The notes beneath the pieces are model-generated. The model saw nothing but the letters and a program-made list of their open reading frames with translations. It searched no databases and was not told where the DNA came from. Below, in pieces: positions 1,711-45,000 of a stretch of 46,630 nt of DNA. The stretch lies in assembly GCA_964421865.1 (NCBI GenBank), contig CAYQZH010000005.1:1-46630 (forward strand), written 5' to 3'. This DNA is from an uncultured Phycisphaera sp. GTDB taxonomy: Bacteria; Planctomycetota; Phycisphaerae; UBA1845. The translations under genes and the position numbers were made by a program. Every line of letters starts with the position of its first letter. Within the stretch, counting starts at the first letter, position 1.

Positions 1711-4700
1711 CTATCGGCCGGTGAAGCTTGTTTGCAGAATCGCGATGTCGGCGAGGTCGACGTCGCCGTCCGTATCGAGGTCGGCGGCGACGATTCCTTC
1801 CTCATCGGGTACGAGGGTGCATCCGGCGGGAAGGCTCGCCGGATCGTACGGGAGGCCCGGGCCGGTCATGCAGTTCTCGATTAGAACCAAGTCATCGAGG
1901 TCAACATCGCCGTCGGTATCGAGGTCCGGCGAGGCCGTCGGAACGACCACGAGCGTGATGTCCATTGACGAGTAGACCACATCGAACCGAAGACCGGGAC
2001 CGATGTTCAGACCGACCACGCGGGAGAATCGCCCAATGCGTGAGCCGAAGGTCATGACTGTGAATGTTTGGCCCAGTGTCGGTGAGAAAGCAGGATCGAG
2101 CTCAAGTTGAAGCACCCCGTCGAGTTCAGCGGATCCGGTGATGTTCAGCACATCGTAGGCCGCGGCGGGTTCAGCACCATTCAGTTCTATCTCGAGTGCC
2201 GCCGATTGACGTTGCGTGTAGCTGCCCACGATACTCAGGATGCCGGCGCTTAGTCCGGGTCGGACTATGCCGCCGTTGTTCGACACGGAAACAGTTAGGG
2301 TCCCGGTTCCGGTCAGCACCCCCCCTTGCAGGTCCAGGCGCGCCGACCTTAGCTGTCCGCCATTCAGACGGGTCACGCCGGCATCCTGGGTATAGACGCG
2401 ATCCAGATACAACTGCTCCAAGGTTCCGGTTTGCAGTTCGACGGTTCCCGAGTTGTGAAACGCCACCTCGCATTGCAGAGTTCCCGCACCCCGTTTGAGA
2501 AAGGTCCCGGTGTTGGTGAATCGCGCGCTTCCTGACCCGCCAAACAAGCCGTCGCTTACGGCGTCAAACGTTCCAGCATTCTCAAACCCGCCCGTGCCGC
2601 TCATGTTGAGGGACGTGTTCTGCCCGGCGTATGACGCGGTCTGCAAACTTCGAACCGCGCGGCTGTCACGCAAACCGAGGGCCCCAGACATCGCAACGTC
2701 ATTCTCGAAGACCGTCCGACCAGCCCCGATCATCGTGGCGGCCGTCCACGTGGATGGTCCGCTCGCACGCACCTCATCCGCGCCCGAAAGGAAACCTCCG
2801 GTTTGATCCAGTTGACCGACCGTCACTGTCTGGCCGGTGTTAAAGTTCACCGTACCTCCCCTCAAACGGAACGTCTGCACGTCGATCGCCTCATCACAGT
2901 TCAAGTTGACCGTGCCGCCGCCAACTTCCAGCGAATCTCCCAGGCTCAACACTGTCGACGCCGGAGTGAAATTCATCGTGTTGCCGTTGAGGGTCGTCTG
3001 TCGGGCCACGTCGTAAATGCCGTTCACGTTGACAATGGACCCTGACTCCGTGGTGACGTTGCCCGCCCTGATGGTGGAGGCCGGATCGAAGTCGAAGGTC
3101 TCGCTAACAAAGTTGAGCGAGGCGACCTCATCTCCCTGGAAAACACCGGTATGTGGCGTACTCGTACCCCCGGAGAGTTTGAGGATACCGCGCACAATGT
3201 TTACGACGCCGTGGTTGTTGAACTTAACGCCGACGTTCATCGTGCCGGGGCCGAGCTTATTGAACGTGCCATAGTTATGGAACAGCCCGTTGCCGGACTG
3301 CAACAACGGACCGTCGGACTCTGCGTTGAAGATGCCCGTGTTGTTGAACTCGGACGTACCCGACATTGTCAACACGGCGTCCGCCCCGGTAAATGTTGCC
3401 GTCGCCGGATTCTCCAAGGTACGATCGTCGGCAAGCACACCGTGGCCGGTGATGGTCATCCCGCCTGCGGCGGTGATCTGACCGGGTCCGCGAATATACG
3501 CTCCCTGCCATCCGCCGGACCAAAGAAATGACTCACTCACATGGATGTCGTCACCGCCTTCGATTGCACCATACGACTGGGTGAGGTTACGAATGCTCAC
3601 AGGTTTGCCGGTGTTGAAGTACACGTCAGCCATGTAACCGTGTGTGTACGTATCCAGCACAATCGGTTCATCGTTGTTGAAATGGACCGTGACCGAGCTT
3701 CCTTGGTGCGCCACCGCAATGAGATCTCGTCCCAAACTTCGCAGACTTCCCGTCGTAGTAAAGGTGATGGTGCCGCCGGTCATCGTCGTGGTACCGGTCA
3801 CGTCGTAGTGGCCGTCGATGGTCGCCTCTCCGCCGCCCCAAGCGTTGAAGACAACGCTCTCAGCTTCCACGCGCGAGCCGGGCGAAAAGGAGTGTATTCC
3901 GCGACCGAATTCCACCACGGCACCCGGCGAGCCCAGGCAGCGGGCGGAATCCGAGTGCTCGCTGCCTCCTCGCAACACGACCCTGCCTCCGATAACGCTC
4001 AGGTCGCCGTGGTTGATAAAATCGACACTGATATCAAGCGTATCCGGACCGGTTTTGCTGACCGTGGCGTAATTGAAGAAACGCGGCGAACCGTTCCACC
4101 TCTCGATGAATCCACCGGTGGCCGCAAACACGTCCCAGTTGATGAAATAGGCATTGTCCAACATGCGCATCCACGGGAGCGCCCCACCAAAAGACGTCGG
4201 AGACTCGGCACTGATGGACCGCTGGTCATAGAGCGTAACGGCAGCATTATCAATCAGAAGTCCGCCATGGGTTTCAATCAGCCCGTCGCCGCGAAGGTCA
4301 GCCGCCTGTAGCGATAAGAGACCATCCACCTCCGTGCTCCCCGGACCGTCGAGTGTTGCATAGCTGATCGTGAAATTGCTCTCCATGCGCGACCGATCCG
4401 TGGTCCGAAGCGTGCCGCCCGAGAGCACAAACCGCTCGGCGGAGCGGATCCCGAGTACTTCCGAGCCGCCTTGGGAATGAGTCACGGTGGACACGGTCGG
4501 AACATCGATACAGATATGATCGGCCGGACCGGGAACGTCGGAATTGTCCCAGTTGATGGGCTGATGCCAGAAGCCGTCACTCCCAATCCACGAGACGAAG
4601 GTTCCGCCGTCGCACTCGTCGGGCACGCCGTTGAGGTCGCAGTCCTGGGAAACGCCCGCGATTTCGCAGTCGTCGGGTACTTCGTTGGCATTGCAATCGG

Positions 4701-6758
4701 CTGCAAACCCGCAGCCAGGGACGTTGCAGAACGCCCCGAGACTTCCGAAACAGTCCACTTCGCAAAGATCGACGATTCCATTGTCGTTGCACTCGATGAT
4801 TTCGTAGGGCCCGAACGAAGTCACTTCCTCCTGCCAGTTTCCGGAGCAGTCGCCCGCGCGGATGATGAAAAAGTGCCTTCCGAGTTCAAGTGGCAGACTG
4901 GTCAACGGCGTTCCGCTGAAACCCGGGTCGGCATTAAAGTCCGGGACGGTATTGGGGTCCGACGACCACTCGTAGCTGAAGATTTCCGCGCCGGAGCCCT
5001 CGTCCGCCGGTGCGGTCCAGACGACCACGATCTCCGGGCTCGTCCCGCCCACGCCAAAGGGATGCGTGGGGGATACGAGTTCTGTGACGCGAGAGGGGGG
5101 AGTCCCGTCCTGCCAAGTGTATTCCCACCTCACGTTGTTGGCCGTTCGCCAAAGAGCGTTTTCATGCTCCGGAAATCGCGCTCTGAAGGCGTTGATGAAT
5201 TGGAGCACTGTGATCGGTTGGTCATGCGTAACTACTTCGAAGATTTCGTCAACGCCAAGATCGAGGGCGTCCTTCGCGCAGACCGGCTGCCCATCGTCTA
5301 CACCGTTGTTGTCCTGGTCCTCCATCTCGTCTTCAATGTCTCGAAGCAGGGCCCCGATGAACCCTTCGGTCTTGAACGGATCAACCAGATCGGGGATCCC
5401 ATCATTGTCGAAGTCATCCGCGATCCCGTCGTTGTCCTGGTCACAAATCCCGGTTCGTTCCAGGCTTCGGCCGAAGAGCGAGGTAATCCCATAGTCAGCA
5501 GGATACGACCGTGTTACTACGTCGGCCAACCAGTTCGGCCATCCTTCGTTCCAGGCGTCATGGAAATTCTCCGGACACCACATGCAGTGTCCTGGATTGG
5601 GGCAGCCCGCGCCGCCGTCGCAAAAACCGTTGCAGTAATCGGGAACCTCAGTCTGCGAAAAGTTATGCAAGAAATGATGGCCATACTCATGGGTGATTGT
5701 ACTCTCCTGCCACTGCTTGGCCGAACTAAGGAAAATCTCGTCGTCCAGGTATTCTGCGTTGTTCCCGCCCCCGGCACTATCCTCCGGCCATTGAACGTCG
5801 ACCTCGGGTACGTCGATTCCGGTCCGCGTTTCGATAAAACGATGGGCCCGCATGATGCGATTGAAGATGTGCAGAGCGGGGTGGTCGCGGGAAGCGTTGG
5901 GGCTGAGTTCGCCGAAGTCGATCTCCGATCCGGTGAAGTTCGGGAAATACAGGTCGTCCTTGGTGTCCCAGCTATAGTCTTCCTCGAAAACGCCGAGCTT
6001 TGGACGTTGACGACGCCCGTATCGCACTCCCATCGGACGTAAATGTCCGGGTCGTCGCACCCGGTGATGTCCCAGTCATCCCAGTTGAGGGTCACGTCGA
6101 AATACCCGTCAGCATCAGTCCGTCCCGACCACATCTCCTCGTCGAAAAAGTCATCGTCGAGGTCCATGATCTGCACCCAGATGCCATCCACGCCCATCGT
6201 TTGCGCGGGGATGTCATTCACGCCGTCTCCGTCGAGGTCCCGCGCGATCCGGTTATAGATGATCCTTCCCTGGAAATGGATCGTGTTCCCTCCCGCAACA
6301 TGACCGTCGCCCGCGGAGATGCGAGCGCCCTGCCGGCTTTGCGCCGGGCGCGGCTTACCCACCTTCGCAAAATACCCTGGGCTAAGATCCAAACTTTTCG
6401 CGGTCATCCGTCCGTTGAAACGGACGCTTACGCGCAGGGGCTTCGAGGAGTCCCCGGGTCGGGCGCGGAACGGAACGTCAACGACCTCGCCCGAACGCAC
6501 CTCTTGGGGAGTTTGTAAACCGAGCGGCTGAAGGGTCCAACTGTCGCCTTCCAGGGCGATGAAGTCGACCGTCCCGTCTCGCAATACTTGCAATCGGATG
6601 ACGCCGTCGTATTCTCTACCGGACACCGCCGGGCGTGTGTCGGCGGGCATGTGTATCTTCATGGGCGGACCGACGTCCGCCCAAACCGTTGTGACGCTTG
6701 CCGCGAAGAGCGCGCCGCAGAGAAGGAGTCTCGCTCGCCGTCCCCGTACGCCTCTCAT
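1711..6758 (-). pseudogene. Large secreted HEXXH metalloprotease / beta-helix / dockerin-like protein (~1680 aa), split by a 1-bp frameshift near 5995 (pseudogene or sequencing error)
   Basis: Signal peptide and RBS at 6758. ORF 5517..6758 reads ...VVNVQSS and continues as GVFEEDYSW in ORF 1711..6060. Contains HEYGHHFLH, DCNxNxVPDxC repeats, N/G/T-rich passenger-like repeats and paired C-terminal DLDTDGDVDLxD motifs. Confidence 0.8.
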
Positions 6759-6919
6759 GTCACCTCTCCCCGCCGTCTCTCACACCGCCACCGATGGTAG
6801 TGCGGATTGTTTTGCCCGCGTAGGGCGGTGCCCATGACCAGCATACCACGCCGCAGTAGCGTTCAATGGTGAAGACCGGGTCGCGCCGGGTGCGCTGCTG
6901 ACGGGCATCGTGCCTCTCC

Positions 6920-8506
6920 CTAAGGACCGGTAAACGCGTGCTCGAAAGCCGCATAATCGAATAGATCCACGTCCCCGTCGTTGTCCACGTCGAAATCGAA
7001 CGCGCCTGCATCGCACTGCCCGACATCAAGAGAGACAAAGTATTCGGACTGGTGCACGTCGTCACAGTCGACGACGGATCGGTCCGTTACCAGCAGTCGA
7101 ATGGTGTAGCAGCAGGGGCGCAGGCCCCGCGTGTCCCACGTTCCCAGCAGGCCGTGGACAACTGGAGCGTTGCCGTGGGCGTCGGGAATGGGAACCCAGC
7201 CGTGCTCGTCGCCTCCCGTATACCAGAGCGACCACCCGGCAAGGTGTGCGTCCGTTGCCGTCCCGACGATGTCAACCAGGCCATTGACACAACCGCAGTT
7301 GGTCGGCGTTGTAATGACGGCGGTGGGCCAGGCGTTGTCAATCGTCACATCGCGCGTCACCGTGGCCGTGTGGTTACAGAAGTCCGTGCCCCGAATGCGA
7401 ACGCGGTAATCGCCATCCGGAACGGCGGCCGCCCCCACCGCCGTATTCCACGAGGCGAACGGATCGAACGTAACCCAAGGGGGGCTCACTGAGTTAACGG
7501 GCAGGAACGCCCCCCCGGCGGCCGGCTGGTAGTCCACCGTGAAGGTTCCCGAGCAAGAGTCCCAAACGGTGCCGTCAAAACAGACGGAGCCGCCTGCGAT
7601 CAACCCGTTCGTCGGTTGCCGGACAACAAGGCTATCGAACTGGGTGTCCACGAAGACCCGATTCCGGTCCTCCGTCGACACGCCACAGCCGTTGTAACTG
7701 GTCAGCTTGAGAATGTAGTCGTCCTGCACATTCGGCGGGTTCCAGGCCGCGAGCACGTTGTTGACGACCGCGGTGTCGTTGAGAGCGATCAGGTGGAACG
7801 GATCACTTCCGTCGTCGCGCTGATAATGCAGCGTGTACCCTCCGAACTCGCCGTCTACGTCCCGGGCCGTTCCGATGACGTTGGCGCTGGTCTCGCAGAT
7901 GCATGTCCTGTGGGCGGGTGTAGTGATCACGGCCTCGGGCGGCGTTGCGTCCGCTGTGAACGTAAGGTCGTCGATCAACTCGAACCGCTCCGCGCACAGC
8001 CCCCCGGCGCCGGCCTCGATCTCGATTCGGCGGAAGCCCGCGGCCCGCTCAATACGGACGAAGACAAGAACCCGCTCGACGAGGTCTCCGTTCACCGGCA
8101 CATTCCGAAGCCCGACGCGGACGTCGGCGGCGTCGTACCAGCGAACCTGAACCGTATCGGTGGAGTTGCACCCGACGCGGACGCCGAGGTTGAAGGTCAC
8201 CGCGGTCTGGTCGATGTCAAAGGCGAGCCGAAGAAACTCCGGGCTGAACTCGTTCAGACCGTCGCCCCGGGCGCTTAGACACTGCGGCTCTGAGGTCGTT
8301 CCACCCGAGGGGTTGTAAATGATCGGATTGACTCCGGAAGTGCCGTCGGGATCGCGTCCGCTGAATCGGACGCCGGCGTACTGGGTCGTGACCACCGTTC
8401 CGACGGGAAGACCGTCGAAGTCGATTGTGGGACATTGGCCCCACGCTTCAACCCCATAACCGACGATCACCGAGAGAACTCCTCCGCACTTGAATATGCC
8501 CTTCAT
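6920..8506 (-). CDS. Secreted protein with three Ig-like repeats and C-terminal dockerin-like EF-hand motif
   Basis: ATG 8506 with AGGAG RBS, signal peptide, repeated PxAVITTP...L..W.....Y.LRL modules, ends DVDNDGDVDLFDYAAFEHAFTGP. Confidence 0.85.
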   Translation of the reverse strand: MKGIFKCGGVLSVIVGYGVEAWGQCPTIDFDGLPVGTVVTTQYAGVRFSGRDPDGTSGVNPIIYNPSGGTTSEPQCLSARGDGLNEFSPEFLRLAFDIDQTAVTFNLGVRVGCNSTDTVQVRWYDAADVRVGLRNVPVNGDLVERVLVFVRIERAAGFRRIEIEAGAGGLCAERFELIDDLTFTADATPPEAVITTPAHRTCICETSANVIGTARDVDGEFGGYTLHYQRDDGSDPFHLIALNDTAVVNNVLAAWNPPNVQDDYILKLTSYNGCGVSTEDRNRVFVDTQFDSLVVRQPTNGLIAGGSVCFDGTVWDSCSGTFTVDYQPAAGGAFLPVNSVSPPWVTFDPFASWNTAVGAAAVPDGDYRVRIRGTDFCNHTATVTRDVTIDNAWPTAVITTPTNCGCVNGLVDIVGTATDAHLAGWSLWYTGGDEHGWVPIPDAHGNAPVVHGLLGTWDTRGLRPCCYTIRLLVTDRSVVDCDDVHQSEYFVSLDVGQCDAGAFDFDVDNDGDVDLFDYAAFEHAFTGP

Positions 8507-8628
8507 GGTGCCGAACTCCTGTTTGTACCCTACACCCAAGCCGCACCCCGCGGCCCGTTGGCTACTGCTAATAGGCGCGGGCTACGCGCCGTTGGACGGG
8601 ACCACCGCTTTTTTACAGGATCCCGGGC

Positions 8629-8655
8629 ACGGATGGCCGTTGGGGCGGCTTACGC
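8629..8655 (-). promoter_or_regulatory. Candidate ECF promoter GCGTAAG-N16-CCGT for leftward cargo operon
   Basis: Same bipartite motif at 12605-12631 upstream of the rightward cargo operon. Confidence 0.35.
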
Positions 8656-8772
8656 GGATTGCCATCCACGGCGCCAATCGAGTAGGATCAAGCCGTGACA
8701 ACAGATCGCGGGTCGAGCGCCACGCCGATGTTCCCGCGAGTCGAAGTCGACCCGGCATGAAGAGATCCATTC

Positions 8773-9372
8773 GTGGACGCGGACGTCACCCGGGCCTCCC
8801 TTCTCTCGCGAGTGCGCGACGCCTCGAACGACGCAGCCTGGCGTGAGTTCGACGCCCGCTACCGCGAGTTGATTCTACGCTACGCCTTGGCCCGCGGGCT
8901 TCAACACTCCGACGCCCAAGACGTGCACCAGATCGCGATGCTCAGCCTGTCGAAGTCGCTACGGAACTTCCATTATACGGCCCAGCGCGGTCGGTTTCGC
9001 GATTATCTCGGACAAGTCGTGCGCAGCGCCCTCAGTCGGCATTTTGCGAGTCCAAAACCGGCGTCGGCGGCGCTAGATAGTAGTGTCCTGGCAAGCGTAC
9101 CGGCGGAGGACGGCGCGGCAGCGGATTCCCTCTGGGAACAGGAATGGGTAAACCACCATTACCGAGTCGCTATGCGGGTGATCCGCGAGACCTTCGAGCC
9201 ACGAAGCGTGGCGATGTTCGAGCACCTGCTCGCCGGGGCGGGCGTCGAGGAGGTGGCCGCCGCGCACGGCACGACGACGCAGGCCGTTCATAAGGTGAAA
9301 CAGCGAATCCGTGAAAGGATGAAGGAGCTTATCGCCCTTCAGATTCACGAAGAGGATCAGCCGGATGCATAG
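8773..9372 (+). CDS. ECF-type RNA polymerase sigma-70 factor
   Basis: TRASLLSRVR...AWREFDARY, DAQDVHQ, GRFRDYL region 2 and C-terminal HTH; overlaps the downstream kinase start. Confidence 0.92.
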   Translation: MDADVTRASLLSRVRDASNDAAWREFDARYRELILRYALARGLQHSDAQDVHQIAMLSLSKSLRNFHYTAQRGRFRDYLGQVVRSALSRHFASPKPASAALDSSVLASVPAEDGAAADSLWEQEWVNHHYRVAMRVIRETFEPRSVAMFEHLLAGAGVEEVAAAHGTTTQAVHKVKQRIRERMKELIALQIHEEDQPDA

Positions 9373-11944: not shown

Positions 11945-12437
11945 GGGCGAAGGTCGAGCAAGCGCTGCCGCACGCGCTGCGTCACGAGACCGATCGCCTG
12001 CGTCCGAAATGGTCGGCGCGGCGGCGCCGTCGGTCGCTTGACGATGAGGGCGCGGCGGATGGCGACAGCGACGCACGGAGCCCTCCTGCGGCCGCTGCCG
12101 TCCACGCCACGGTGTTGGGGATCGGCGGCGTTGACGTTCGGGTCGCCGGCCTGGCCGCGGAGGGAGGGCCAGACGAGCAAGAGGAATTCCCGTCCAGCTG
12201 CGCGGGGGTTCTTCCAGAGGCTTTTGGGGGGGAAGAACTGCATGGTCCATGTGCGGCCATGCGGTGGCGGGGGTGAGTTTCCAAGTCCGGGGGAGGGAAA
12301 CGGAGTCTTCGGCTGTTCCGCTTGGCCTCGAGGCGTGCGGAATGCAAACCCCGGGCCCTTTGGGGCCACCGAGGTGGCGAGCGAATCGGGGAACCGGGCG
12401 GATGTTCGCCCCGGGGCGATGGCGCCACCGACGCTGG

Positions 12438-12527
12438 CGAGCGTCGCTCCAAAACAATAGGGATGCGAAGCGTTAGGCTCGAAAGGGCGTAGATTTAGGC
12501 GTCGCGTTCAGCGCTTTCATAAACCGC
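12438..12527 (+). repeat. ~90-bp dispersed site, copy C
   Basis: CGAGCGTCGCTCCAAAAC...TCGAAA...GATTTA...GCGCTTTCATAAACCGC aligns without gaps to 941-1030 and 19748-19837. Confidence 0.7.
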
Positions 12528-12604
12528 TGATTTTAGGGTTAGACGGTTGATCATCTTCGCCAGGATTCGGGCGCTGACGGATGGGGTGGCAACTCCTTTC
12601 CGAT

Positions 12605-12631
12605 GCGTAAGAACATGCTGTTGATCACCGT
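12605..12631 (+). promoter_or_regulatory. Candidate ECF promoter GCGTAAG-N16-CCGT for rightward cargo operon
   Basis: Matches 8629-8655 (minus) in both boxes and spacing. Confidence 0.35.
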
Positions 12632-15959: not shown

Positions 15960-15975
15960 TCTGGAAGCGACGACG

Positions 15976-33460: not shown

Positions 33461-33494
33461 CCCGTCGTCCGGCTTGGCCGTCCCGTCGCATCCA

Positions 33495-35150: not shown

Positions 35151-35260
35151 CTGTTGAGCCCCGGCCACCCATGGTCGCGGCGGAACGCCGCTTCGGAGGT
35201 CGGAGTCACCGTTCGTTCCCTCAGTGGCCGGTCATCGTCGAGCTCCCCGAACCCCTTACA

Positions 35261-35290
35261 AATGCGTAAATCGCCCGCCCGGGGCGTCAC
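35261..35290 (-). promoter_or_regulatory. Putative ECF promoter GTGACG-N18-CGCATT driving the cargo operon
   Basis: Identical boxes and spacing to 35381-35410 on the opposite strand. Confidence 0.65.
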
Positions 35291-35380
35291 CCAATCGAAG
35301 AAAATCGTTAGAATGTTGCTGCGAGCCTGAAGGGCTGGGTACGATGGACCGGCGAAACAACGACGTTTCCCTTGTCGCTC

Positions 35381-35410
35381 GTGACGCTTGTTCCGGTGTT
35401 TTTTCGCATT
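35381..35410 (+). promoter_or_regulatory. Putative autoregulatory ECF promoter GTGACG-N18-CGCATT
   Basis: Directly upstream of the ECF gene; twin of 35261-35290. Confidence 0.65.
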
Positions 35411-35459
35411 AGGTCGTTAGATGGGTTCGATGAGGGATCAGGAGTCAAGGCGGCCGAAC

Positions 35460-36047
35460 ATGGACGAAGCAGGCGGTCCGGTGACGCGATTGCTCGCCGA
35501 CGCGGCGGCGGGGAGACCCGACGCCGCCCGGGACCTTCTGCCGCTCGTCTACCGGTCCCTTCGCGATCTGGCCAGTCGGCAATTCGCTTCCGAGCGAACC
35601 GAGCACACGTTGCAGGCGACCGCCCTGGTGCACGAGGCCTATCTGCGACTGGTCGGGACGAGTGACCTCGGATGGGACAGCCGCGCCCACTTCTACGGCG
35701 CCGCCGCGGAGGCCATGCGCCGCATCCTGATCGAACACGCTCGGCGAGTCGGGGCCAAAAAGCGCGGCGGGGACCGCAAACGCGAGATCGCTTGCGTCGC
35801 CGATCTGGCTCACGAAGATACCGTCAGCGACGCGCCGGAAATTGACGCGGCCATCGAGGCCCTTCGGGCGGATGATCCGCGGGCAGCGAGCGTTATCCAC
35901 CTGCGGTTTTACACCGGCCTGTCGATCGACGAGACCGCTGCGGCGCTGAACATCGCCCCGAGCACCGTGGAGCGCGAGTGGCGCTATGCCCGGGCCTGGC
36001 TCCTGCGGCACCTGCAGAACGGCGATCGCGCGGAGACGCGACCTTGA
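35460..36047 (+). CDS. ECF-type sigma factor (TIGR02999-like planctomycete family)
   Basis: VTRLL, LLPLVY, HTLQATALVHEAYLRL, AAAEAMRRILI, KRGG, W.YARAWL. Alternative starts 35421/35430. Confidence 0.93.
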   Translation: MDEAGGPVTRLLADAAAGRPDAARDLLPLVYRSLRDLASRQFASERTEHTLQATALVHEAYLRLVGTSDLGWDSRAHFYGAAAEAMRRILIEHARRVGAKKRGGDRKREIACVADLAHEDTVSDAPEIDAAIEALRADDPRAASVIHLRFYTGLSIDETAAALNIAPSTVEREWRYARAWLLRHLQNGDRAETRP

Positions 36048-39000
36048 GTCCGGCGGATCGTGAACGCGTCAAAGGATTGCTCGCTCACGCCGCAGGTCTG
36101 CCTCCTCAGCAGCGCAGGGCGTTCATCGAATCCGCGGCCGCCGACCTCCCTGAAATCGCTACGGAAGCTCTCGACCTACTATCTACTCTCGACGACTCCG
36201 GCTTCATGAGCAAGCCCACCGGCGCGGGCTTTTCGGCAGAATCGGTTCCAACGACGGTTCCCCGCGAGCAACCCGGCGCCCGGGTCGGACGATACAAGTT
36301 GCTGCAACTCATCGGGGAAGGTGGATTCGGCTCGGTGTTCATGGCCGAGCAGACCGAGCCCGTCCATCGCCGTGTGGCCCTGAAGATCATCAAGGCGGGC
36401 ATGGACACCAAGCAGGTGATTGCCCGCTTCGAAGCCGAGCGCCAGGCTCTCGCGATGATGGATCACTCCAACATCGCTCGGGTCCTGGATGCCGGAGCCA
36501 CGGAGAGCGGCCGCCCGTACTTCGTGATGGAGCTGGTTCGCGGTGAGCCGATGACTCGGTACTGCGATCAAGAGCGGTTGCCGATTCACCGGCGACTCGA
36601 ATTGTTCCGCGACGTTTGCAACGCCGTTCAACACGCTCATCAGAAGGGGGTCATCCACCGTGACCTCAAGCCTTCCAATGTGCTCGTGACCGTCGCTGAC
36701 GGGGAACCGCTCCCCAAGGTGATCGACTTCGGCATCGCCAAGGCCGTTTCCGGCCGTCTGACCGACCGGACGCTTTTCACCGAGATGCATCAACTGATCG
36801 GCACGCCGGAGTACATGAGTCCCGAACAAGCCGAAGTGTCGGGCGTCGACATCGACACCCGCAGCGACATTTATTCGTTAGGAGTGATGCTTTACGAACT
36901 GTTGGTCGGGAGCACGCCGATCGATGGTGAACGACTGCGCTCCACGCCGCTCGCGGAGATCCAGCGGCTCATCTGTGAGGAAGAACCGCAAAGACCGAGC
37001 CTGCGCCTTGCAACGCTGGAATCATCGTCCGGGGCGCAGCTCTGGACGCCGCCGCAGGCGGCCGGCGATTCCGCCGAATCCTCCGCGATTGAGATCGCGC
37101 GGCGACGGCAGTCGGAGCCCATGCCTTTGACCCGCACCCTACGCGGCGACCTCGACTGGATCGTCATGAAGTGCCTGGAGAAGGATCGATCGCGCCGCTA
37201 TGCGACCGCCAGCGCCCTGGCAGAGGATGTGGCGCGCTATCTGTCGGACCAGCCGGTCCTCGCCACGCCCCCCAGCGCGCGCTACAAACTTCGCAAGTTC
37301 GTACACCGGAATCGAACCTTGGTGCTCGCCGGCGCCGCTGTCGCCGTTGTCCTTGTGTTGGGCGTCATCGGAACCACCCTCGGACTCGTTTGGGCCATGC
37401 GCGAACGGGGTCGGACCCACGAACAGAGGATCATCGCCGAGGCGAACGCCATCACGGCCCGCAGGGAGGCCGAGAGAGCCAACCGCGAGGCGGATCAGGC
37501 TCACGCTGTGGCGGATTTTCAAGCGCAGATGTTTGCGGACGTTAATCCGCAGACCATGGGGATCAAGTTGCGAGCGGATCTGTTGACCAAGGCGCGGGCG
37601 GCAGCGAAGCGATCGGGACGCAACACGGAAGAAATCGACACGCACGTCGAGGAACTCGCAAAGCTCATCGCCGGTATCGATCTCACCGGGATGGCCCTAA
37701 CGACACTCGACGAGAACGTTTTCCAAAGGGCCTTGGCCGTCATTGAAAGACAGTTCGCCGACCAGCCCTTAGTCAAGGCGCGGTTGCTGCAGACCATGGC
37801 CAGCACACTCCGCGAACTGGGTTTGCTCGATGCCGCGATTCGGCCGCAGGAACAGGCACTGGAGATCCGCCGCCAGGTGATTGGCAGCGAACACCCCGAC
37901 GCGCTCGCCTCGATCAGCGAGATGGGCCGACTGCGCCTTGCTCAGGGCAAGCTGACGGACGCTGAGCCGTACCTCCGCGAGGCCGTGCAGGGTCTCAGAC
38001 ATGTGCTGGGCGACGAGCATCCCGACACACTCAGATCGATCGTCAATCTCGGCCATCTGCTCCACGACCAGGGCAAGCTGGCGGAGGCCGAAGCTTTCTA
38101 TCGCGAAGCGATGGAGGAACTCCGCCGCGTGCTGGGTGATGACCACCCCGACACCCTCATTTCGATCGCAATCCTAGGCCAACTGCTTCAGGAAGAGAAT
38201 AGGCTCTCAGAAGCCGAACCGTACTTATATGAGGCGCTGGACAAGCGCCGCCGCGTGCTGGGCGACGAGCACCGTGACACGCTTGAGTCCATGAACAACG
38301 TGGCTATTCTGCTCCTCGCTCAGGGCAAGCTCAAAGAAGCCGAAGCGTACTTCCGCGAGTCCCTGGAGAAACATCGCCGCGTACTGGGCGACGAGCACCC
38401 CAATACGCTCAGCGCAATCAGCAACATGGGCATTGTGCTACGCGCCCAGGGCAGGCTTGCGGAAGTTGAACCGTATTACCACGAGGCGTTAGAGAAACGG
38501 CGCCGCCTGTTGGGCGACGAGCACCCCGACACGCTTACGTCGATCCACAACATGGGCTTCCTGCTCCAGGCGCAGGGCAAGCTCGCGGAGGCCGAGCCGT
38601 ATTGCCGCGAAGCGATGGAAAAGTGGCGCCGGCTGCTCGGCGACGAACACCCCGACACTCTGATAGCGATCAATAATATGGGCGTTGTGCTCCTGACCCA
38701 AGGGAGGCTGTCCGAAGCAGAGCCCTTCTGCCGCGAGGCGATGGAGAAACGCCGCCGTGTGCGCGGCGAAGAGCACTTGGACACGCTCATTTCGATTAGT
38801 AACATGGGGAATCTTCTTCAGGCACAAAGCAAACCCGCGGAGGCCATTGGACTAATGGCCCCGGTAGAGCCTGCGGCTCGCCAGGCATTCGCCGGCAATC
38901 CGGTGCGCCTGGGCCGCTTCCTGACCGCACTCGGACGTGCGCGCGTGTCTACCAAAGAGTTCGACGCCGCAGTGGCCAACCTGAGCGAGGCCCATGCCAT

Positions 39001-39166
39001 CTTGAGCGAGGCAAAGGGCGCAACGGACCGGGACCGCATTGACGTTTTGAGCGGCCTGGTGAAACTCTACGAGGTTTGGCATTCCGCCGAGCCGGATCGA
39101 GGCTACGACACCAAGATGGCCGAATGGCGCGTCAAGCTCATCGAATCGCAAGCAGGGCAAGACTAG
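36044..39166 (+). CDS. Membrane Ser/Thr protein kinase with TPR repeats
   Basis: TTG start overlapping ECF stop (TTGA); GEGGFG, HRDLKPSN, DFG, SPE; one TM segment; many 42-aa LGDEHPDTL repeats. Confidence 0.95.
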   Translation: MSPADRERVKGLLAHAAGLPPQQRRAFIESAAADLPEIATEALDLLSTLDDSGFMSKPTGAGFSAESVPTTVPREQPGARVGRYKLLQLIGEGGFGSVFMAEQTEPVHRRVALKIIKAGMDTKQVIARFEAERQALAMMDHSNIARVLDAGATESGRPYFVMELVRGEPMTRYCDQERLPIHRRLELFRDVCNAVQHAHQKGVIHRDLKPSNVLVTVADGEPLPKVIDFGIAKAVSGRLTDRTLFTEMHQLIGTPEYMSPEQAEVSGVDIDTRSDIYSLGVMLYELLVGSTPIDGERLRSTPLAEIQRLICEEEPQRPSLRLATLESSSGAQLWTPPQAAGDSAESSAIEIARRRQSEPMPLTRTLRGDLDWIVMKCLEKDRSRRYATASALAEDVARYLSDQPVLATPPSARYKLRKFVHRNRTLVLAGAAVAVVLVLGVIGTTLGLVWAMRERGRTHEQRIIAEANAITARREAERANREADQAHAVADFQAQMFADVNPQTMGIKLRADLLTKARAAAKRSGRNTEEIDTHVEELAKLIAGIDLTGMALTTLDENVFQRALAVIERQFADQPLVKARLLQTMASTLRELGLLDAAIRPQEQALEIRRQVIGSEHPDALASISEMGRLRLAQGKLTDAEPYLREAVQGLRHVLGDEHPDTLRSIVNLGHLLHDQGKLAEAEAFYREAMEELRRVLGDDHPDTLISIAILGQLLQEENRLSEAEPYLYEALDKRRRVLGDEHRDTLESMNNVAILLLAQGKLKEAEAYFRESLEKHRRVLGDEHPNTLSAISNMGIVLRAQGRLAEVEPYYHEALEKRRRLLGDEHPDTLTSIHNMGFLLQAQGKLAEAEPYCREAMEKWRRLLGDEHPDTLIAINNMGVVLLTQGRLSEAEPFCREAMEKRRRVRGEEHLDTLISISNMGNLLQAQSKPAEAIGLMAPVEPAARQAFAGNPVRLGRFLTALGRARVSTKEFDAAVANLSEAHAILSEAKGATDRDRIDVLSGLVKLYEVWHSAEPDRGYDTKMAEWRVKLIESQAGQD

Positions 39167-39339
39167 CCTGAGACTGTGACCCAAGGCCCTGTACCTCCTG
39201 AGACTTGAGTTTCGATACTCGCCAGGGGCGTTCTCCCGCCGAATCTCGAATTGCTCGGCCTCGATCGGACGCGGCCGAGTCGCTGCTGGTGTCGGCCCAG
39301 CCACACGTCTCCGACAATTTCTTCCCTCCCGCCCGGTAA

Positions 39340-39468
39340 AGGGGGCGGACCCTCGAATCGCTGATTCAACTCCATGAAGCGCGCCACGCGGACATGCCCG
39401 TCAACGGCTTCGATGCAAAGGCCACCGAATGGCGAGCCCGCCTCGCGCAACGCAGGTCAGACCCTTAA
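39340..39468 (+). pseudogene. Relic 3' end of another kinase-TPR gene
   Basis: Translates TLESLIQLHEARHADMPVNGFDAKATEWRARLAQRRSDP*, matching the C-termini of the neighbouring kinases (VLSGLVKLYEVWHSAEPDRGYDTKMAEWRVKL). Confidence 0.75.
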
Positions 39469-39672
39469 CCATGCGCCGGTTCCGCAATCAGATTACGTTC
39501 CGAAGCGCATCGCGAGGCCTATCCGGAGATGGCGTTTGGAGCTCGTGCGTGACTTGTTGGACACCGCAATTCAGGTATCTTCAGCTGTTATGTAGTATGG
39601 AGGTGGGTTGGACGATGCGGCGCAGAAGGACGCCGGGAGGATACGTAAACTACCGTAAATTAAAAGGTTAAT

Positions 39673-39708
39673 GCGGGCGTAGCTCAATGGTAGAGCATCA
39701 GCCTTCCA
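39673..39708 (+). repeat. tRNA-Gly 5'-half copy 3
   Basis: 36/36 identical to 45444-45479, then a 1-nt insertion relative to copy 2. Confidence 0.95.
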
Positions 39709-39885
39709 GAGATAACCGAGCACTACATCACGGGTCGAAAAACGGCCTTGGCGCTGTCGAAATCGCGGTTTTTGGGGATTGATCCGGCTCGATGGTTCGA
39801 CCCAAGTAGTATCAGTTCGACCGGAAATGTAGTGCGAGAAATTTTCGCGGAATGGCATCGGAAACCGCGGTCAGGTTGGTATCCG
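39709..39885 (+). other. Cassette 3 left arm
   Basis: ACTACATCAC 39722-39731, AAGTAGT 39804-39810, ATGTAGT 39827-39833; clearly similar to 20099-20280. Confidence 0.75.
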
Positions 39886-40050
39886 CCTCGCTTGCAGAAC
39901 GGGTCAATCGAGCCTCACTCGTGGGTCTACGATCGAACAACGTCATACGACCATTGCGATTCTCAGTTCTGTTGCGCTGCCGCAGGAGCCCGTGTTGGTG
40001 TCAATGCCTCAATTGACGCAGGACCGGTCGTTCGGCCCGTTCATGGCAAT

Positions 40051-41644
40051 CTACTGGCCGGTGAAGGAAACGCTCATTTTGGCGAAGTCGGCGAGGTCCA
40101 CGGTTCCACGGGCGTTGATGTCGAAGCAGCGGCAATCCAGCTCGACGGCCTCTGCCGGACCCGTCAGACAACTCTCAAAAAGCCCGTGGTCGAATAGATC
40201 CACGTCGCCGTCGTCCTGACAGTCGCCCGGTGGGATTTCAAACCAGAAACCACCTGTCCGTTCGAAGTCGCCGCCGCTCAGGCGTCCGGCGTCGGCCTGT
40301 CCGATGGTGCCGGAGAGTTCGAACGCACCTCCGTTGCTTCGCACCACGCCCCCACCGTCAACTGTGTTCCAGGGCAAGTCGAGTTTGGTGGTCGGAGCGG
40401 TCGTGCCGATACCGACGTTTCCCGAAACTGGATTCAAGGAGAGATTCTGCCAGGCTGTTTGCGTCGCATCGTGGCCGCCGAGCGTCGCGACCCCGTTCAC
40501 TTCTCCGAGCACAACCGACGCGGCCTCGCCTCCTGCGGGGATTCCACCCTCCCAACTGGATCCAATTCCCTTGACCTGAAGCGCAAAGTGGGTGTGCGGC
40601 GTCGCGGTGCCAATGCCTGTCCGGCCCTGGACGATCAGGCCGTCGGTAGGGGCCGCATTGAGACCCGAATAGCTGGAGCCGATGGCCGCGGCGCCCTCGA
40701 CGTCCAACCGATTCGCCGGCACGCCGGTGCCGATTCCAACGTTGCCGTTGCCCTTGATGCGCAAGCTCGATAAATGAACTACTGGAACCGGCGCCGAAGG
40801 CGATGTCCGTGAGGACTCCGTCCGAATGCATCTGCAAGAGGCCCGGCTGAATTCCGAATCCGTAGTGGTTACTCGACTGCCCGTAAAGGCTGATCTTGTC
40901 GCCCCCGGTATCGGCGAACGAGAGTGGGAATCCTGGTGTCGTCGTCCCGACCCCGATGGACCCGCCAAAGTAGCTTTTTCCGTCGTCGAAATAGCCGGCG
41001 AACCCGTTGTTGGCCGCACTGCCGTAAACGCCGATGTCTTTTGTCGAGTCATAGAAGGAGAGCGCCGCAATCCCTGCGCGGCTTAGACTCACCACGCCCC
41101 AGGTCGCACTCGTGGAAGCAGACTGGTTCCCAAACGCCGCCAAGCCACCGCCGGAAATCGCCGCGCCATCGACGGCATCAACGGTAAGTACGGATCCCAG
41201 GATTCCCTGCGACGGCGCCCCTTTGATGACTGCCCCCGGACTGAGCATTAATGCGTGCGGTGTCGCGGTCAACGGCTGGCGCGGACTCAGCGTCGTGCCG
41301 TCCACCTCGATCTGCAGCCAACGGGCGCCGCCATCGAAGGCGCCAAGTCCGAATTCATCATGCGCCTTGACCGTCACGGTGAACAAGCCGTTCACGACCT
41401 CGACGCCGTTGATCGATTGTTCACTCCCGATCTGCGCGCCGCCGGTCGGCGGATCGCCCACGCCCGGTGAGTCGAAGAGCGTAAAGAGGAAATCCACGGT
41501 TCCATTCATGGGAAGACCGGCATCCTTGAGCTGTCCTTGGTAGGTGAACGAACCGGCCCAAGCCGGCGTTGTCAGGCAGGCCAAAAGAATTCCAAGTGTC
41601 AGGCAAGTTGCATGACACGAACCGTTCTGTCGGTCTCTTTCCAT
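40051..41644 (-). pseudogene. Secreted FTYQGxL / GNVGIGT fibre-like protein, frameshifted near 40765 and apparently fused to a WxTxDGGG-dockerin module
   Basis: GAGGAG RBS and ATG 41644, signal peptide, FTYQGQL. Frame switches from SSSFIE to LRIKGNGNVGIGT. Ends with DCQDDGDVDLFD...VDLADF..FTGQ. Confidence 0.75.
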
Positions 41645-41839
41645 CGACAATCTCCTCAACCATTCGAAGCGCCATCGAGTTCGTAGGCATCCTGCGACCA
41701 CGTCATCGCGTTGCGGTAGCCCACGTCCCGGCGCTTCCACCCTCATCCACACGATCTGGGCCCGGAACGGTCGGAAAAAGGCAAGATCGATGGGCAACGT
41801 CTGCTAACCGCCGCAACATGGCCGCTTCGGCCGTTCTTT

Positions 41840-41867
41840 TTGAGGCGGCAACCCCGAGCGATATAAT
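41840..41867 (+). promoter_or_regulatory. Sigma70-like promoter TTGAGG-N16-TATAAT for ECF gene
   Basis: Perfect -10 at 41862-41867, 35 nt upstream of TTG start. Confidence 0.5.
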
Positions 41868-41902
41868 GAAGTACCCCTGGGAACGCCCCACGGAGTCGCG
41901 CC

Positions 41903-42703
41903 TTGGAACAGCAAGCTGGAAATGTAACAGTCTTCCTAGCCCGACTCTCGGCGGGCGAGACCGGCGCGGCCGAACGCCTGCTTCCGGTAGTCTATGAGGA
42001 GCTCCGCGCATTGGCAGGCCATTACTTCAAGAAGCAGCGGTCGGACCACACTCTTCAGCCCACGGCTCTGGTCCACGAGGCTTACCTGAAGCTGATCGGT
42101 CAGGAGCGCCCTGAGTGGCAGAGTCGGGCGCATTTCCTGGCCGTGGCCGCGACCGCCATGCGCCAAATCCTGGTCAACCATGCTCGGGACCGAAAAGCGG
42201 TAAAACGCGGCGGAAGTGATCGACACCGGATCACCCTCGACCGGGCGCTCGCGGCCGTGGAGTCCGATGTCGTGGATGTCATCGACCTCGATGACTCGCT
42301 TTGCAGGCTGGCGGCGTTCAGCGAGCGGCAGGCGCGCGTGGTCGAACTACGAGCATTCGGCGGTCTGACCATCGAGGAGGCGGCGCACGTTTTGGGCGTC
42401 GGGCAGACCACAATCAAATCGGATTGGCAGTTCGCTAAGGCCTGGCTCAAGCGCGAACTGGCCGCGACCAACGGATGGACGCGGCTAGGCATGAGCGTAT
42501 CGTCGACATTTTTGTGCGCGCCAAGGCGTTGCCGTCGGAGCAGCGTCGCGGGCTTATCGATGAGGCCTGCGCCGAGGACCTCGGGCTGCGCGCCGAAATC
42601 GAGTCGCTTCTCGCTGCTGACGAACGCGAGGTCTCGTTTCTCGATGCTCCCCGAGAGGGTGGGGTCGTCGCGGTCATTGCTGGTCACGACGACGATGCGC
42701 TGA
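41903..42703 (+). CDS. ECF-type sigma factor (TIGR02999-like); sigma-like sequence ends ~42478, apparent stop-loss extension
   Basis: LLPVVYEELR, HTLQPTALVHEAYLKL, KRGG, WQFAKAWL. TGG at 42476-42478 sits where an ATGA overlap stop would be expected. Confidence 0.88.
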   Translation: MEQQAGNVTVFLARLSAGETGAAERLLPVVYEELRALAGHYFKKQRSDHTLQPTALVHEAYLKLIGQERPEWQSRAHFLAVAATAMRQILVNHARDRKAVKRGGSDRHRITLDRALAAVESDVVDVIDLDDSLCRLAAFSERQARVVELRAFGGLTIEEAAHVLGVGQTTIKSDWQFAKAWLKRELAATNGWTRLGMSVSSTFLCAPRRCRRSSVAGLSMRPAPRTSGCAPKSSRFSLLTNARSRFSMLPERVGSSRSLLVTTTMR

Positions 42704-45000
42704 TCGGGACACGCGTCGGTCCCTACGAGCTCCGGCGATTGGTGGCGACCGGGGGGATGGGCGTCGTCTACGAGGCTATGCAGCAACATCCGCACCGAAT
42801 CGTCGCCCTAAAGCTCATGCGCCACGGCTTCAGTTCAGCAAGCACGCTTCGTCGATTCCAGCTCGAAGCCGAAATGCTCGGGCGCTTGCAGCATGTCGGC
42901 ATCGCACAGGTTTACGACGCGGGGATTCACAAGTCGCCCACGGGCATGCAGATCCCGTACTTCGCAATGGAACTCATTCACGGCACCGCGCTTACGGAGT
43001 ACGCACAACAGCAGAGGCTTGGCACGCGTGATCGATTGGCCCTCCTAGCCAGCGTGTGCGACGCCGTAGAGCACGCCCATCAAAAAGGCGTCATTCATCG
43101 CGACTTGAAACCCGCCAATGTCCTGGTTGACGCCGGCGGGCAGCCTAAGGTTCTCGACTTCGGCATCGCCCGCGTGACGGACGCCGACCTCGGCACGACC
43201 ACCATGCCCACTTCCGTGGGACAGCTCTTGGGCACACTTCCCTACATGAGTCCTGAACAGACAAGCGGCAATCCTGCGGACTTGGATACCCGGTCGGACG
43301 TGTACTCGCTCGGCGTTATCCTCTACGAGTTGCTGACGGACCGTCTTCCCTATGATCTGAGTCAGCACTCGATCGCCGGCGCTGTACGCGTCATCCAGGA
43401 AACCGAACCGATTCGCTTGTCATCGATCAATCGCGTGTTACGCGGTGATCTCGAGACGCTCGCGGCTAAGGCGTTGGAGAAAGATAAGGAACACCGCTAC
43501 GGTTCGGCGGCCGCATTGGCGGCCGACATTCTTCGATATCTCATGGATCTGCCCCTGTCCGCGCGCCCGGCAAGCACGTTCTATCAACCCCGTAAGTTCG
43601 CAAAACGCAATCGCGGCCTGGTCGCAGCGGCGAGCCTGTGCTTGCTCCTGCTCGTCGGCGGAGTCACCGGAACGACTATGGGATGGGTCTCCTCGAATCG
43701 CGCCAACCGAAAGCTCGCCGAGGCCGTCGTCGAGGCTACCACGCAGCGCGACCGCGCCCGCGACAGCGAAGCTAAGGCTACGACGGAAGAAGCTAAGGCT
43801 ACGACGGAACTCGCCCGCAGCCAAGAAATCGCGGAGTTCATGCGGTCCATGCTACAGTCGGTGAACCCGGCGGTCGCCCGCGAGCGAGACACGACGCTGC
43901 TACGCGAAATCTTGGAGCGTGCGGTCAAAAAGATCGAGTCCGGCGAACTATCCGATCAATCGGTAGTCGAGGCGGAGATGCGATCAACGATCTCGGAGAC
44001 GTACGCCAGCATCGGCGACAACGCTGCTGCACTACGCGTGATTGAGCCGGCCATACAGATGGCACGCGCCGCTCCGGTTGACCAGGCAGCGTCGTTCCTC
44101 CATGCGAGGATTCTCTACGCGACCACGTTGGTCGTGTGGGGTCGATACGCCGACGCAAGGGCCGAATTCGAGCAGGCCGTGGCGATTCACCAAGGCGCGG
44201 GTCTCCCGGAGGATGAGCAAGCGGGCGTGCTCTACTCCAACTTTGGAGGAGTTCAGTCCCATCTCGGGAATGCGGAGTAAGCGCTGCAACTACATCAGCG
44301 TGCACTCGAAATCCGTAAACGCCTTCGGGGGGAGAAGTCGGGCGATGTCGCTGCCGCGATGGGAAACATCGCCGGTGTTCTACAGAACCTGGAGCGTTAC
44401 GACGAGGCGCTCCCGATGTTGCAGGATGCACTTGCGATCTACCGTGGCGCGGACCCGCCGCGCCTGCTGCACATCACCATCGTTGAAAACAACATGGCCG
44501 AGGTGCTTCTGCTGATGAACCGTCCGATTGACGCTGAGCAATTCGCACGAGACGCGCTCGAGATCTGTGTACGGGTTTTCAAGCCCGATCACCAGCAGAT
44601 TGGGTTTGCGACACATACTCTGGGCCTCGCCCTGCGTGTCCAGGACCGTCACGTTGAAGCCGTCGAGCAGTTCGCCAAGGCGGCGCAGATCGTCAGGAGC
44701 GCGTTTGCCGACAGCCATGAGTTTGTTGCGACGGCGCGGATGGACTTGGGCGTTGCGCTGGTCGCCACTGGCCGATACGCCGAGGCTGAACCAGAACTGC
44801 TCTCGGCCTGCAAGGCATTCGATGAGCGGGATGGCGGGCCGGAAACGTCGATCGAATGCATCCGCGCCGTGGTGGACTTGTACCGGGCCTGGGACAAAGG
44901 CGAGTTTGCCAACCGACATGACGCGGAATTGCTACGCTGGAGGGCCCGGCTCCACGAGCTCGACTCGCAGGCTCCATCCCAAACCCCAGGCGGGGATTAG
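42475..45000 (+). pseudogene. Ser/Thr kinase-TPR gene interrupted by in-frame TAA at 44278-44280
   Basis: HRDLKPAN, DFG, SPE; the same frame resumes ALQLHQRALEIRKRLRGE and continues through ORF 44359..45000. Confidence 0.88.
43768..43809 (+). repeat. Perfect 21-bp tandem duplication (EAKATTE x2)
   Basis: GAAGCTAAGGCTACGACGGAA twice. Confidence 0.95.

Follow-up and report, generated by a model that had tools for sequence, protein, structure and literature searches.

Tandem units at a tRNA gene

The DNA analyzed here, a stretch of 46,630 nt from contig CAYQZH010000005.1 of an uncultured Phycisphaera sp. (called the window; all position numbers refer to the whole of it), contained three consecutive units, each encoding a sigma factor of the extracytoplasmic function (ECF) type, a Hanks-type kinase, and exported proteins. 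The units were bounded by partial copies of a tRNA gene and extended from 560 to 20060 (U1), from 20099 to 39672 (U2), and from 39709 to 45443 (U3). The single tRNA in the window, predicted by ARAGORN and Rfam, was an intact tRNA-Gly(UCC) on the plus strand at 45444-45515. Its first 36-38 nt were repeated three times on the same strand as the intact gene: at 523-559, with one mismatch at tRNA position 6, at 20061-20098 (38 nt, exact), and at 39673-39708 (36 nt, exact). The identity stopped at tRNA position 36-38, which is the 3' edge of the anticodon loop. As in tRNA-targeting islands, part of the tRNA was thus present in direct repeats, in this case four copies, that broke off in the crossover region. 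Since it is the 5' half that recurs, the upstream region of the tRNA has to come with each unit, and each integrating unit would bring a new 5' half with it. The spacing from half to half was 19,538 nt for U1, 19,612 nt for U2, and 5,771 nt for U3. U1 and U2 were near-equal in length despite their unrelated contents, which may be a coincidence or may reflect a size constraint.

Each half was followed by a conserved left arm of about 130-170 nt, and these arms were homologous between units. An 8-mer, ATGTAGTR, occurred 10 times compared to 0.38 expected (the maximum in 100 shuffles was 2) and was confined to the four junctions. Each left arm had an inverted copy about 49 nt in and a direct copy at about +153, with one-mismatch copies forming a third site per arm. 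These sites were at 570-577 on the minus strand and at 651-658 and 674-681 on the plus strand in the U1 left arm (560-700), at 20108 (minus), 20191, and 20214 (plus) in the U2 left arm (20099-20230), and at 39721 (minus), 39804, and 39827 (plus) in the U3 left arm (39709-39843), which was 77% identical to the U2 arm. Direct copies were also found 20-85 nt 5' of the second and third halves and of the intact tRNA. The U1 right arm (19890-20060) contained a hairpin and arm repeats at 19988 and 20040, the U2 right arm (39580-39672) an arm repeat at 39590, and the U3 right arm (45260-45443), directly 5' of the intact tRNA, a hairpin and arm repeats at 45361, 45387, and 45410. A scan of the window found the 8-mer neither 5' of the outermost half nor 3' of the intact tRNA. 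Three tandem elements with an attL, two attP-like junctions, and an attR would be expected to have their arm repeats placed in this way, the half at 523-559 being the putative core of the outer attL.

Elements that are flanked by attachment (att) sites and lack recombination genes are known as cis-mobilizable elements (CIMEs), and the three units had the form of such integrase-less, att-flanked elements in tandem. They did not have the form of an integron, as they were 5.8-19.6 kb long, contained their own regulators, and had tRNA halves and arms as boundaries, and as the neighboring integrase is of a family found beside tRNA genes (see below). [quoted passage not shown] Alternatively, these could be ordinary, long-resident loci of sigma factor, kinase, and cargo, in which the tRNA halves are scars of old events at a recombination hot spot, the units have ceased to move as such or never moved, and the pairs reflect their abundance in the lineage. 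The homologous arms in three consecutive units, the excess of an 8-mer specific to the junctions, and an arm-repeat order of exactly attL, two attP-like junctions, and attR argue against long residence, which we consider unlikely though far from negligible; the evidence in its favor is given below with the distribution of the sigma factors.

Sigma factors and kinases

The gene order was the same in each unit: minus-strand genes with signal peptides, a divergent gap, the ECF sigma gene, and, coupled to it, a gene encoding a kinase, a transmembrane (TM) segment, and tetratricopeptide repeats (TPRs). All of the sigma and kinase genes were on the plus strand. In U1, ECF1 (8773-9372) was followed by STK1 (9365-11944), the ATG of which overlapped the ECF1 stop codon (TAG) by 8 nt and the product of which had one TM segment at about residues 345-365 and a TPR array. 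In U2, ECF2 (35421-36047, with a likely start at 35460 by alignment to ECF3) was followed by STK2 (36044-39166), which had a TTG start overlapping the ECF2 TGA and encoded an 84-aa N-terminal extension, the kinase, one TM segment, and a TPR array. STK2 also contained seven 126-nt repeats at 37878-38797, corresponding to 42-aa TPR units, that were 69-75% identical. In U3, the sigma domain of ECF3 (41903-42703) ended near 42460 and the reading frame continued for 80 codons beyond it, giving a 229-nt overlap with STK3 (42475-45000). STK3 was cut short within one of its TPR repeats by an in-frame TAA (44278-44280), so that it consisted of the kinase and TM segment at 42475-44280 and, in the same frame, the remaining TPR domain at 44359-45000.

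A Pkinase domain was found in STK1, STK2, and STK3 (E 4.5e-42 to 2.6e-44), and the G-loop, the VALK lysine, HRDLKPxN, DFG, and the P+1 PE motif were intact in all three. Each kinase had a single hydrophobic 19-mer just after the kinase domain and C-terminal TPR_10/TPR_12 arrays, and the TPR sensor domain was intact in STK1 and STK2. The single TM segment suggests that the TPRs are placed extracytoplasmically. Per unit, the sigma factor would thus be translationally coupled to a receptor kinase with a cytoplasmic kinase domain, one membrane span, and a periplasmic TPR array. No anti-sigma family was matched by the open reading frames (ORFs) scanned with Pfam and NCBIfam.

ECF2 and ECF3 both belonged to PF07638 (E 1.7e-55 and 1.5e-54) and to TIGR02999 (195.7 and 207.7 bits, compared to a cut-off of 126.15). 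In region 2.2, where canonical sigma factors have an acidic DAED-type motif, ECF2 had LQATAL and ECF3 had LQPTAL. The threonine was kept in all 120 of the ECF2 homologs listed, 117 of which had QATA and one QDTA, while two had S or G first. With this domain, a replaced acidic motif, and a one-TM TPR kinase at position +1, ECF2 and ECF3 resembled the ECF43 type, as judged by domain, motif, and gene context. ECF1 was different. It matched only Sigma70_r2 (E 1.9e-5) and TIGR02937 (45.3 bits, cut-off 42.9), and assignment to the ECF43 type was rejected for it, as it had no PF07638 domain and retained an acidic DAQD in region 2.2. ECF1 is predicted to be a kinase-linked ECF of a group other than ECF43.

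A preliminary description of this DNA had reported that all three units share one polarity and gene order, that the pairs are not recent duplicates, and that planctomycete ECFs are often paired with Hanks kinases in place of anti-sigma factors. The shared order was confirmed, with the exception that U1 adds two plus-strand secreted genes after its kinase. The pairing is of a published kind (PMC7826278, PMC13147305), and the pairs were indeed non-identical and of two ECF subtypes, as described below.

Exported cargo

An N-terminal hydrophobic, signal-like segment was found in nine of the ten cargo ORFs, the tenth being the downstream half of a frameshifted gene. In U1, the largest cargo gene (1711-6758, minus strand) shifted frame near 5900-5960 and was read as two ORFs, one with the signal peptide (5517-6758) and one with two C-terminal dockerin-like motifs (1711-6060). 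The second minus-strand gene (6920-8539) encoded a secreted protein of 539 aa, for which an atlas look-alike search gave no match scoring 0.8 or higher. The dockerin-like motif, D.D.DGDVD..D, terminated the 1711-6060 product, twice, and the 6920-8539 product. The divergent intergenic region of U1 was at 8540-8772.

In addition to this minus-strand cargo, two large U1 genes with signal peptides were encoded 3' of STK1 on the plus strand. The product of 12732-15959 had weak matches to Big_1 and adhesin repeats and a signal-like segment at ORF residues 64-75. The second gene (15931-19563) encoded a protein of 1210 aa, and contained, at 17157-18944, three copies (70-84% identical) of a sequence of about 740 nt. 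The third-position GC content was still 0.82-0.84 for about 250 nt beyond the STK1 stop codon (11945-12200), which suggests a small unannotated gene 3' of STK1, either 12038-12460 on the plus strand or 11797-12369 on the minus strand; neither of these ORFs had a Pfam match. A near-palindromic repeat of 27 nt, 85% identical between copies, was present in two non-coding stretches of U1, at 1009-1035 and 12506-12532. It could be an operator or a terminator. Neither copy was embedded in a larger stretch of homology or of coding sequence.

The divergent operon of U2 began with a gene for a 557-aa protein (33495-35168, minus strand) that did not belong to a Pfam family and that grouped among unnamed families of about 550-600 aa in the atlas look-alike search (score 0.98). 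The following minus-strand genes encoded a 1912-aa protein with a Laminin_G_3 domain and a HAF repeat (27773-33511), a 2180-aa protein with SpvB, TcdB_toxin_midN, FG-GAP, and RHS repeats and a signal-like N-terminus (21234-27776), and a small membrane or secreted protein (20418-21218). The last 300 residues of the 2180-aa protein had no Pfam match. TcB/TcC-type domains were found in this protein, and no TcA-type family was matched by 27773-33511 or 33495-35168. The product of 21234-27776 is best called a Rhs/TcB-TcC-like exported protein, as judged from its domains. The product of 20418-21218 had a weak C-terminal match to dockerin and FG-GAP-like families that was below the cut-offs (E 0.05 and 0.006), and the dockerin-like motif pattern itself was not matched in it. 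The intergenic region was at 35169-35459.

The U3 cargo gene was read as two overlapping ORFs (40051-41797, minus strand), with a frame shift near 40700-40760, a signal-like N-terminus, and a weakly dockerin-like C-terminus (E 0.09), the latter in the ORF at 40051-41070. It was separated from ECF3 by a divergent intergenic region at 41798-41902. The frame breaks in this array, which are the TAA in STK3, the shifts in the U3 and U1 cargo genes, and the run-on of ECF3, could be due to genuine decay, which would be centered on U3, or to errors in the assembly.

Relationships among the units

The cargo genes were unrelated between units, and because the contents of the units were mutually unrelated, the array is not a duplication. 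The regulators were also distant from one another. ECF2 and ECF3 were 47% identical (87/186 residues), ECF1 had no significant match to either, and STK1, STK2, and STK3 were 32-37% identical to one another. Closer relatives were abundant elsewhere. ECF2 had at least 120 clusters at 71-92% identity, with all 8000 scored candidates at E ≤ 1e-10, and the N-terminal 459 residues of STK2 had at least 150 cluster representatives, nearly all of which were 55-75% identical. More than 120 clusters were nearer to ECF2 than ECF3 was, and at least 150 representatives were nearer to STK2 than STK1 or STK3 was. Since closer relatives of ECF2 and STK2 were found elsewhere, the three pairs appear to come from different old lineages and to be neither duplicates nor each other's closest kin.

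The homologous arms, the same gene order and polarity, and the shared plan of kinase, TM segment, and TPRs could also be expected if there had been one ancestral cassette that already contained a sigma-kinase pair, in which case the presence of a pair in every unit would reflect inheritance and not repeated recruitment or selection. We consider this quite improbable. The lack of significant similarity between ECF1 and the other two sigma factors, the greater distance of ECF3 from ECF2, and of STK1 and STK3 from STK2, than that of the many outside relatives, and the unrelated cargo all argue against a common ancestral cassette.

Association of the sigma factors with cargo

The 557-aa protein encoded first in the U2 divergent operon had 37 homologs, of which 31 were at least 51% identical to it. 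Co-location with ECF2 was scored by equal contig size, using the 119 listed homologs on the ECF2 side, and 10 of the 37 were on a contig of exactly the same size as one with a listed ECF2 homolog, compared to 0.18 expected. Three of the shared contigs were only 2,981, 3,528, and 5,147 nt long, so short that both genes must be neighbors there. On the shared contigs, identity to the window proteins was 53-67% for the cargo and 72-91% for the sigma factor. Conserved adjacency across diverged proteins is the usual comparative argument for a link between a sigma factor and its target. Co-location lends indirect support to a sigma-cargo link, for U2 only.

The ECF2 type was found on 8 of 72,556 plasmid records, among which neither ECF1 nor the 557-aa protein had a match. 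Four plasmid-borne ECF-kinase loci were inspected. The kinase was directly after the sigma factor in all four, a giant surface protein was encoded divergently in one, and a repeat protein was encoded downstream in one. On the Paludisphaera borealis plasmid PALBO1, an ECF2-like sigma factor (47% identical), a kinase, and an SBBP-repeat protein were encoded consecutively, and a tyrosine recombinase was encoded 1.5 kb 5' of this locus. Sigma-kinase pairs therefore do occur on extrachromosomal DNA.

It is conceivable that the pairs are real switches that control something else, for instance the genes of a dispersed regulon or the upkeep or excision of the unit itself. The variable neighbors of the plasmid pairs, the absence of a promoter motif shared by the divergent gaps, and the fact that several substrates are common for Hanks kinases (PMC13147305) would all fit targets other than the cargo. 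The co-occurrence of ECF2-type sigma factors with the 557-aa family on at least 10 contigs, three of which were no longer than 5.2 kb, is against this, as are the published contexts of ECF43 and ECF217, which tie the pairs to type VI secretion systems (T6SS) or dockerin-type extracellular proteins (PMC13147305; PMC7826278). Targets elsewhere are given little credence here.

Comparison with characterized switches

ECF43 sigma factors are described as having a Sigma70_ECF domain and, at +1, a kinase that has a single TM helix (87.8%) together with TPRs outside the cytoplasm, and as having S/T in place of DAED as the phosphosite (PMC7826278 supplement; PMC8999054 for the phosphosite). The ECF43 promoter motif is given as GTC at -35 and CAG at -10 (PMC7826278 supplement), and in the 2021 reclassification ECF43 proper is listed as proteobacterial only (PMC7826278). 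The sigma factor EcfK is reported to be phosphorylated directly by the TM-TPR kinase PknS, with a QTTA consensus, and PknS without its periplasmic domain failed to complement the deletion in X. citri (PMC13147305). EcfK-PknS of Xanthomonas citri and EcfP-PknT of Vibrio parahaemolyticus resemble the pairs described here in the Sigma70_ECF domain, in the S/T replacing the acidic motif, and in the one-TM TPR kinase at +1 (PMC13147305; PMC7826278), and the extension before the kinase domain of about 83 aa in PknS (PMC13147305) compares to about 84 aa in STK2 and STK3. EcfK-PknS drives a contact weapon, the T6SS (PMC13147305). The pairs in the window differ in that they are from a planctomycete host, their TPR arrays are far longer (STK2 is about 1040 residues), the neighboring genes encode Sec-type exported giants instead of T6SS or resistance genes, and the pairs are inside units bounded by tRNA halves.

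By analogy, U2 is likely a phospho-activated sigma switch, and U3 may have been one that is now decayed. In U2, and in U3 before its decay, the TPR domain would sense a periplasmic or contact cue, the kinase would phosphorylate the threonine of QxTA in sigma region 2.2, which is devoid of the usual acidic residues, and the phosphorylated sigma factor would associate with core RNA polymerase and direct transcription of the divergent operon. The exported cargo amounts to one to six genes for large proteins per unit: adhesin-like dockerin proteins in U1, and a TcB/TcC-like Rhs protein and its partners in U2. Direct observation extends to the arrangement of the genes, the families to which they belong, the unit boundaries, and the conserved occurrence of ECF2 together with the first divergent gene, while phosphorylation, the target promoters, the topology and sensing role of the TPRs, and mobility, past or present, are inferred.

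Kinase-linked ECF groups other than ECF43 are reported to retain the acidic residues and possibly to use another mechanism (PMC8999054). ECF1, with its DAQD, is in this position. The planctomycete kinase-linked groups ECF59, ECF61, ECF62, and ECF217 have the kinase at +1, as here, and the context of ECF217s1, with Dockerin_1, extracellular planctomycete proteins, and TPR, resembles U1 with its dockerin-ended proteins (PMC7826278 supplement). ECF1 itself passes only the general ECF model TIGR02937. A similar arrangement was also found on the Pseudoalteromonas xiamenensis replicon NZ_CP072135.1, where a giant Ig-like protein is encoded divergently from an ECF sigma factor and a Ser/Thr kinase, with an 8-nt overlap between the latter two; this host is a gammaproteobacterium and its sigma factor is 32.5% identical to ECF2.

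The neighboring integrase and its family

A tyrosine integrase gene, of which the first 332 of 391 residues were in the window (45635-46630, plus strand), started 119 nt 3' of the intact tRNA and lay outside the three units. Its own Pfam score was below threshold (E 0.023), but it had 1187 homologs, and PF00589 was found in most of the 120 that were listed. Forty members of the family were used in a genome-contig search with alignment, which yielded a comparison set of 80 loci; the best genome-contig match to the window integrase was 73%. A same-strand tRNA was present 113-210 nt 5' of the integrase in 62 of the 80 loci, or 62 of the 69 that had more than 400 nt upstream. These tRNAs were specific for 12 different amino acids (Arg 12, Met 8, Val 8, Gly 8, Ala 7, Asn 6, and others), and this is a broad family in Planctomycetota that targets the anticodon loop. 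At least 8 kb was available downstream in 27 loci, and 7 of these had, 7-11 kb 3' of the tRNA, a second copy of its 3' part that started at position 30-33. The islands of this family are thus of the ordinary kind, with the crossover in the anticodon loop and the 3' half as the part that is carried.

Crossover in the anticodon loop is thus common to these islands and to the array, which supports site-specific entry of the units. Because the family leaves 3' halves and the array has 5' halves, the array is the mirror image of the usual product of the family. Most simply, the window integrase marks where another island, of the canonical kind, begins on its left side and then reaches past the window, and the functional tRNA-Gly may be built from element-derived DNA on both sides. 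One locus in the comparison set may contain a related unit from another genome. In this locus (L037), two copies of ATGTAGTG (9727-9759) were present 55 and 80 nt 5' of a tRNA-Gly(CCC) at 9807-9879, together with a hairpin like those of the right arms in the window, and an integrase of the same family was encoded downstream. It was the only one of the 80 loci with the paired 8-mer upstream of a tRNA-Gly. Its last 10 kb encoded a methyltransferase, an NYN protein, and a HEAT-repeat giant.

The locus could also be an integron-like platform, in which a resident integrase beside the tRNA-Gly captures integrase-less cassettes in trans, each with the 5' half, arm sites, and a private sigma-kinase pair. 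This is improbable. If it were true, a new adhesin or toxin operon would bring along a sensor of its own and a promoter specificity orthogonal to, and not dependent on, the host network.

At the other end of the window, an ORF running off the left edge (3-254, minus strand) had weak RYYR-CCHC and UPF0236 matches (E 0.02-0.04) and possibly represents the beginning of a transposase-like gene in the DNA that flanks the array.

Evidence on the origin of the array

Several results weigh against the entry of three mobile, switch-bearing units at the tRNA gene. The first of these concern mobility. No integrase gene was inside an element beside an att site, and no recombinase, excisionase, or transfer gene was matched by the ORFs within the units (560-45443) in Pfam and NCBIfam; nine small ORFs within the units likewise had no Pfam match at E ≤ 0.1. 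Among the 80 integrase loci, none had a match to the three ECFs, one had a kinase match, and none had similarity to the left arms beyond the tRNA itself. A 5' half upstream was found in only 1 of the 46 loci with at least 8 kb upstream. In that locus (L017), a copy of the first 30 nt of a tRNA-Gly(CCC) gene (9800-9871) was present at 7390-7424, 2.4 kb upstream of the gene, and the 2.4-kb unit enclosed a single gene, for a TPR-DUF1579 protein, and neither an ECF nor a kinase. The visible part of L037, its last 10 kb, also contained no ECF or kinase. In addition, the very wide distribution and high conservation of the ECF2 subfamily are as compatible with an old locus kept vertically as with a cassette that spreads.

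Other results concern the switches. Searches of the U2 and U3 gaps or of four U1 upstream regions for shared bipartite motifs returned only low-complexity, GC-rich pairs. The generic ECF patterns GAAC-N15-18-CGT and AAC-N16-17-GTC had no match in any divergent gap. A sigma-70-like promoter preceded ECF3 only (TTGAGG-16-TATAAT at 41840-41867), and such promoters were no more numerous in that scan than in shuffles. The phospho-switch logic may not apply to U1, because ECF1 keeps DAQD, and U3 is decayed and, with a truncated kinase, could not operate in the way proposed.

The claims of the preliminary description therefore had mixed outcomes. It had proposed that every cassette is a self-contained switch, which fails for U3, where both the kinase and cargo genes are broken. 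Its proposal that the switches are wired to the divergent cargo gained indirect support for U2 from the co-location and none from the promoter-motif searches, which were empty. Mobility of the units was in keeping with their att-like boundaries and at odds with the lack of a recombinase in them and of ECFs in the integrase loci. The expectation that similar cassettes elsewhere would contain sigma-kinase pairs was weakened by the two analogous units that were found, neither of which had an ECF or kinase in its visible part. Finally, the suggestion that such units help explain the expansion of these pairs in planctomycetes was unsupported, as the literature points to lineage-specific processes. 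Kinase expansion in planctomycetes has been attributed to lineage-specific duplication or recombination (PMC11032199), and for planctomycete ECFs duplication was found, with only rare island-borne cases cited (PMC7671368).

Some of these results are what would be expected of long-resident loci. The many close relatives of ECF2 and STK2, the conserved pairing of ECF2 with its cargo on at least 10 contigs, the absence of a recombinase from the units, and the decay of U3 and part of U1 are all consistent with long residence. By equal contig size, moreover, the integrase and ECF2 matches shared contigs at the level of chance (2 compared to 0.99 expected), and the integrase and cargo matches shared none. 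Against long residence, and in addition to the boundaries, a tblastn search with the three ECFs found no match in the 1,121,719 bp of the comparison loci (1.12 Mb), compared to three in this 45-kb array.

Successive entry of units at the tRNA-Gly gene has precedents in its parts. In tycheposon arrays, successive integrations at one tRNA are described as leaving partial tRNA copies between elements (10.1101/2020.12.28.424599); here, in contrast, the repeated part is the 5' half and no unit has an integrase. A genomic island with a sigma factor, regulators, and a contiguous regulon has been proposed to be transferable as one unit (10.1101/247056), as may be the case here. That island has anti-sigma factors, transposase boundaries, and metabolic cargo, whereas the units in the window have kinases, tRNA halves, and exported proteins, and are three in tandem. 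Kinase-switched sigma factors, an island with its own ECF regulon (10.1101/247056), and tandem arrays with partial tRNAs (10.1101/2020.12.28.424599) were thus already known. What is new, as far as the literature was searched, is the combination of three integrase-less units bounded by 5' halves, each with a different sigma-kinase pair and exported giants.

The mirrored arrangement of 5'-half att sites beside an integrase family that carries 3' halves presents an unexplained recombination puzzle. To our knowledge, almost no ECF regulon is known in Planctomycetota, and the pairing of ECF2 with the gene for the 557-aa protein on at least 10 contigs provides a directly testable sigma-target pair. 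If the units did enter site-specifically with their switches and cargo, they would be a tangible means by which complete circuits, from sensor to output, could pass between planctomycetes, and a natural case of orthogonal regulation that travels with its cargo.

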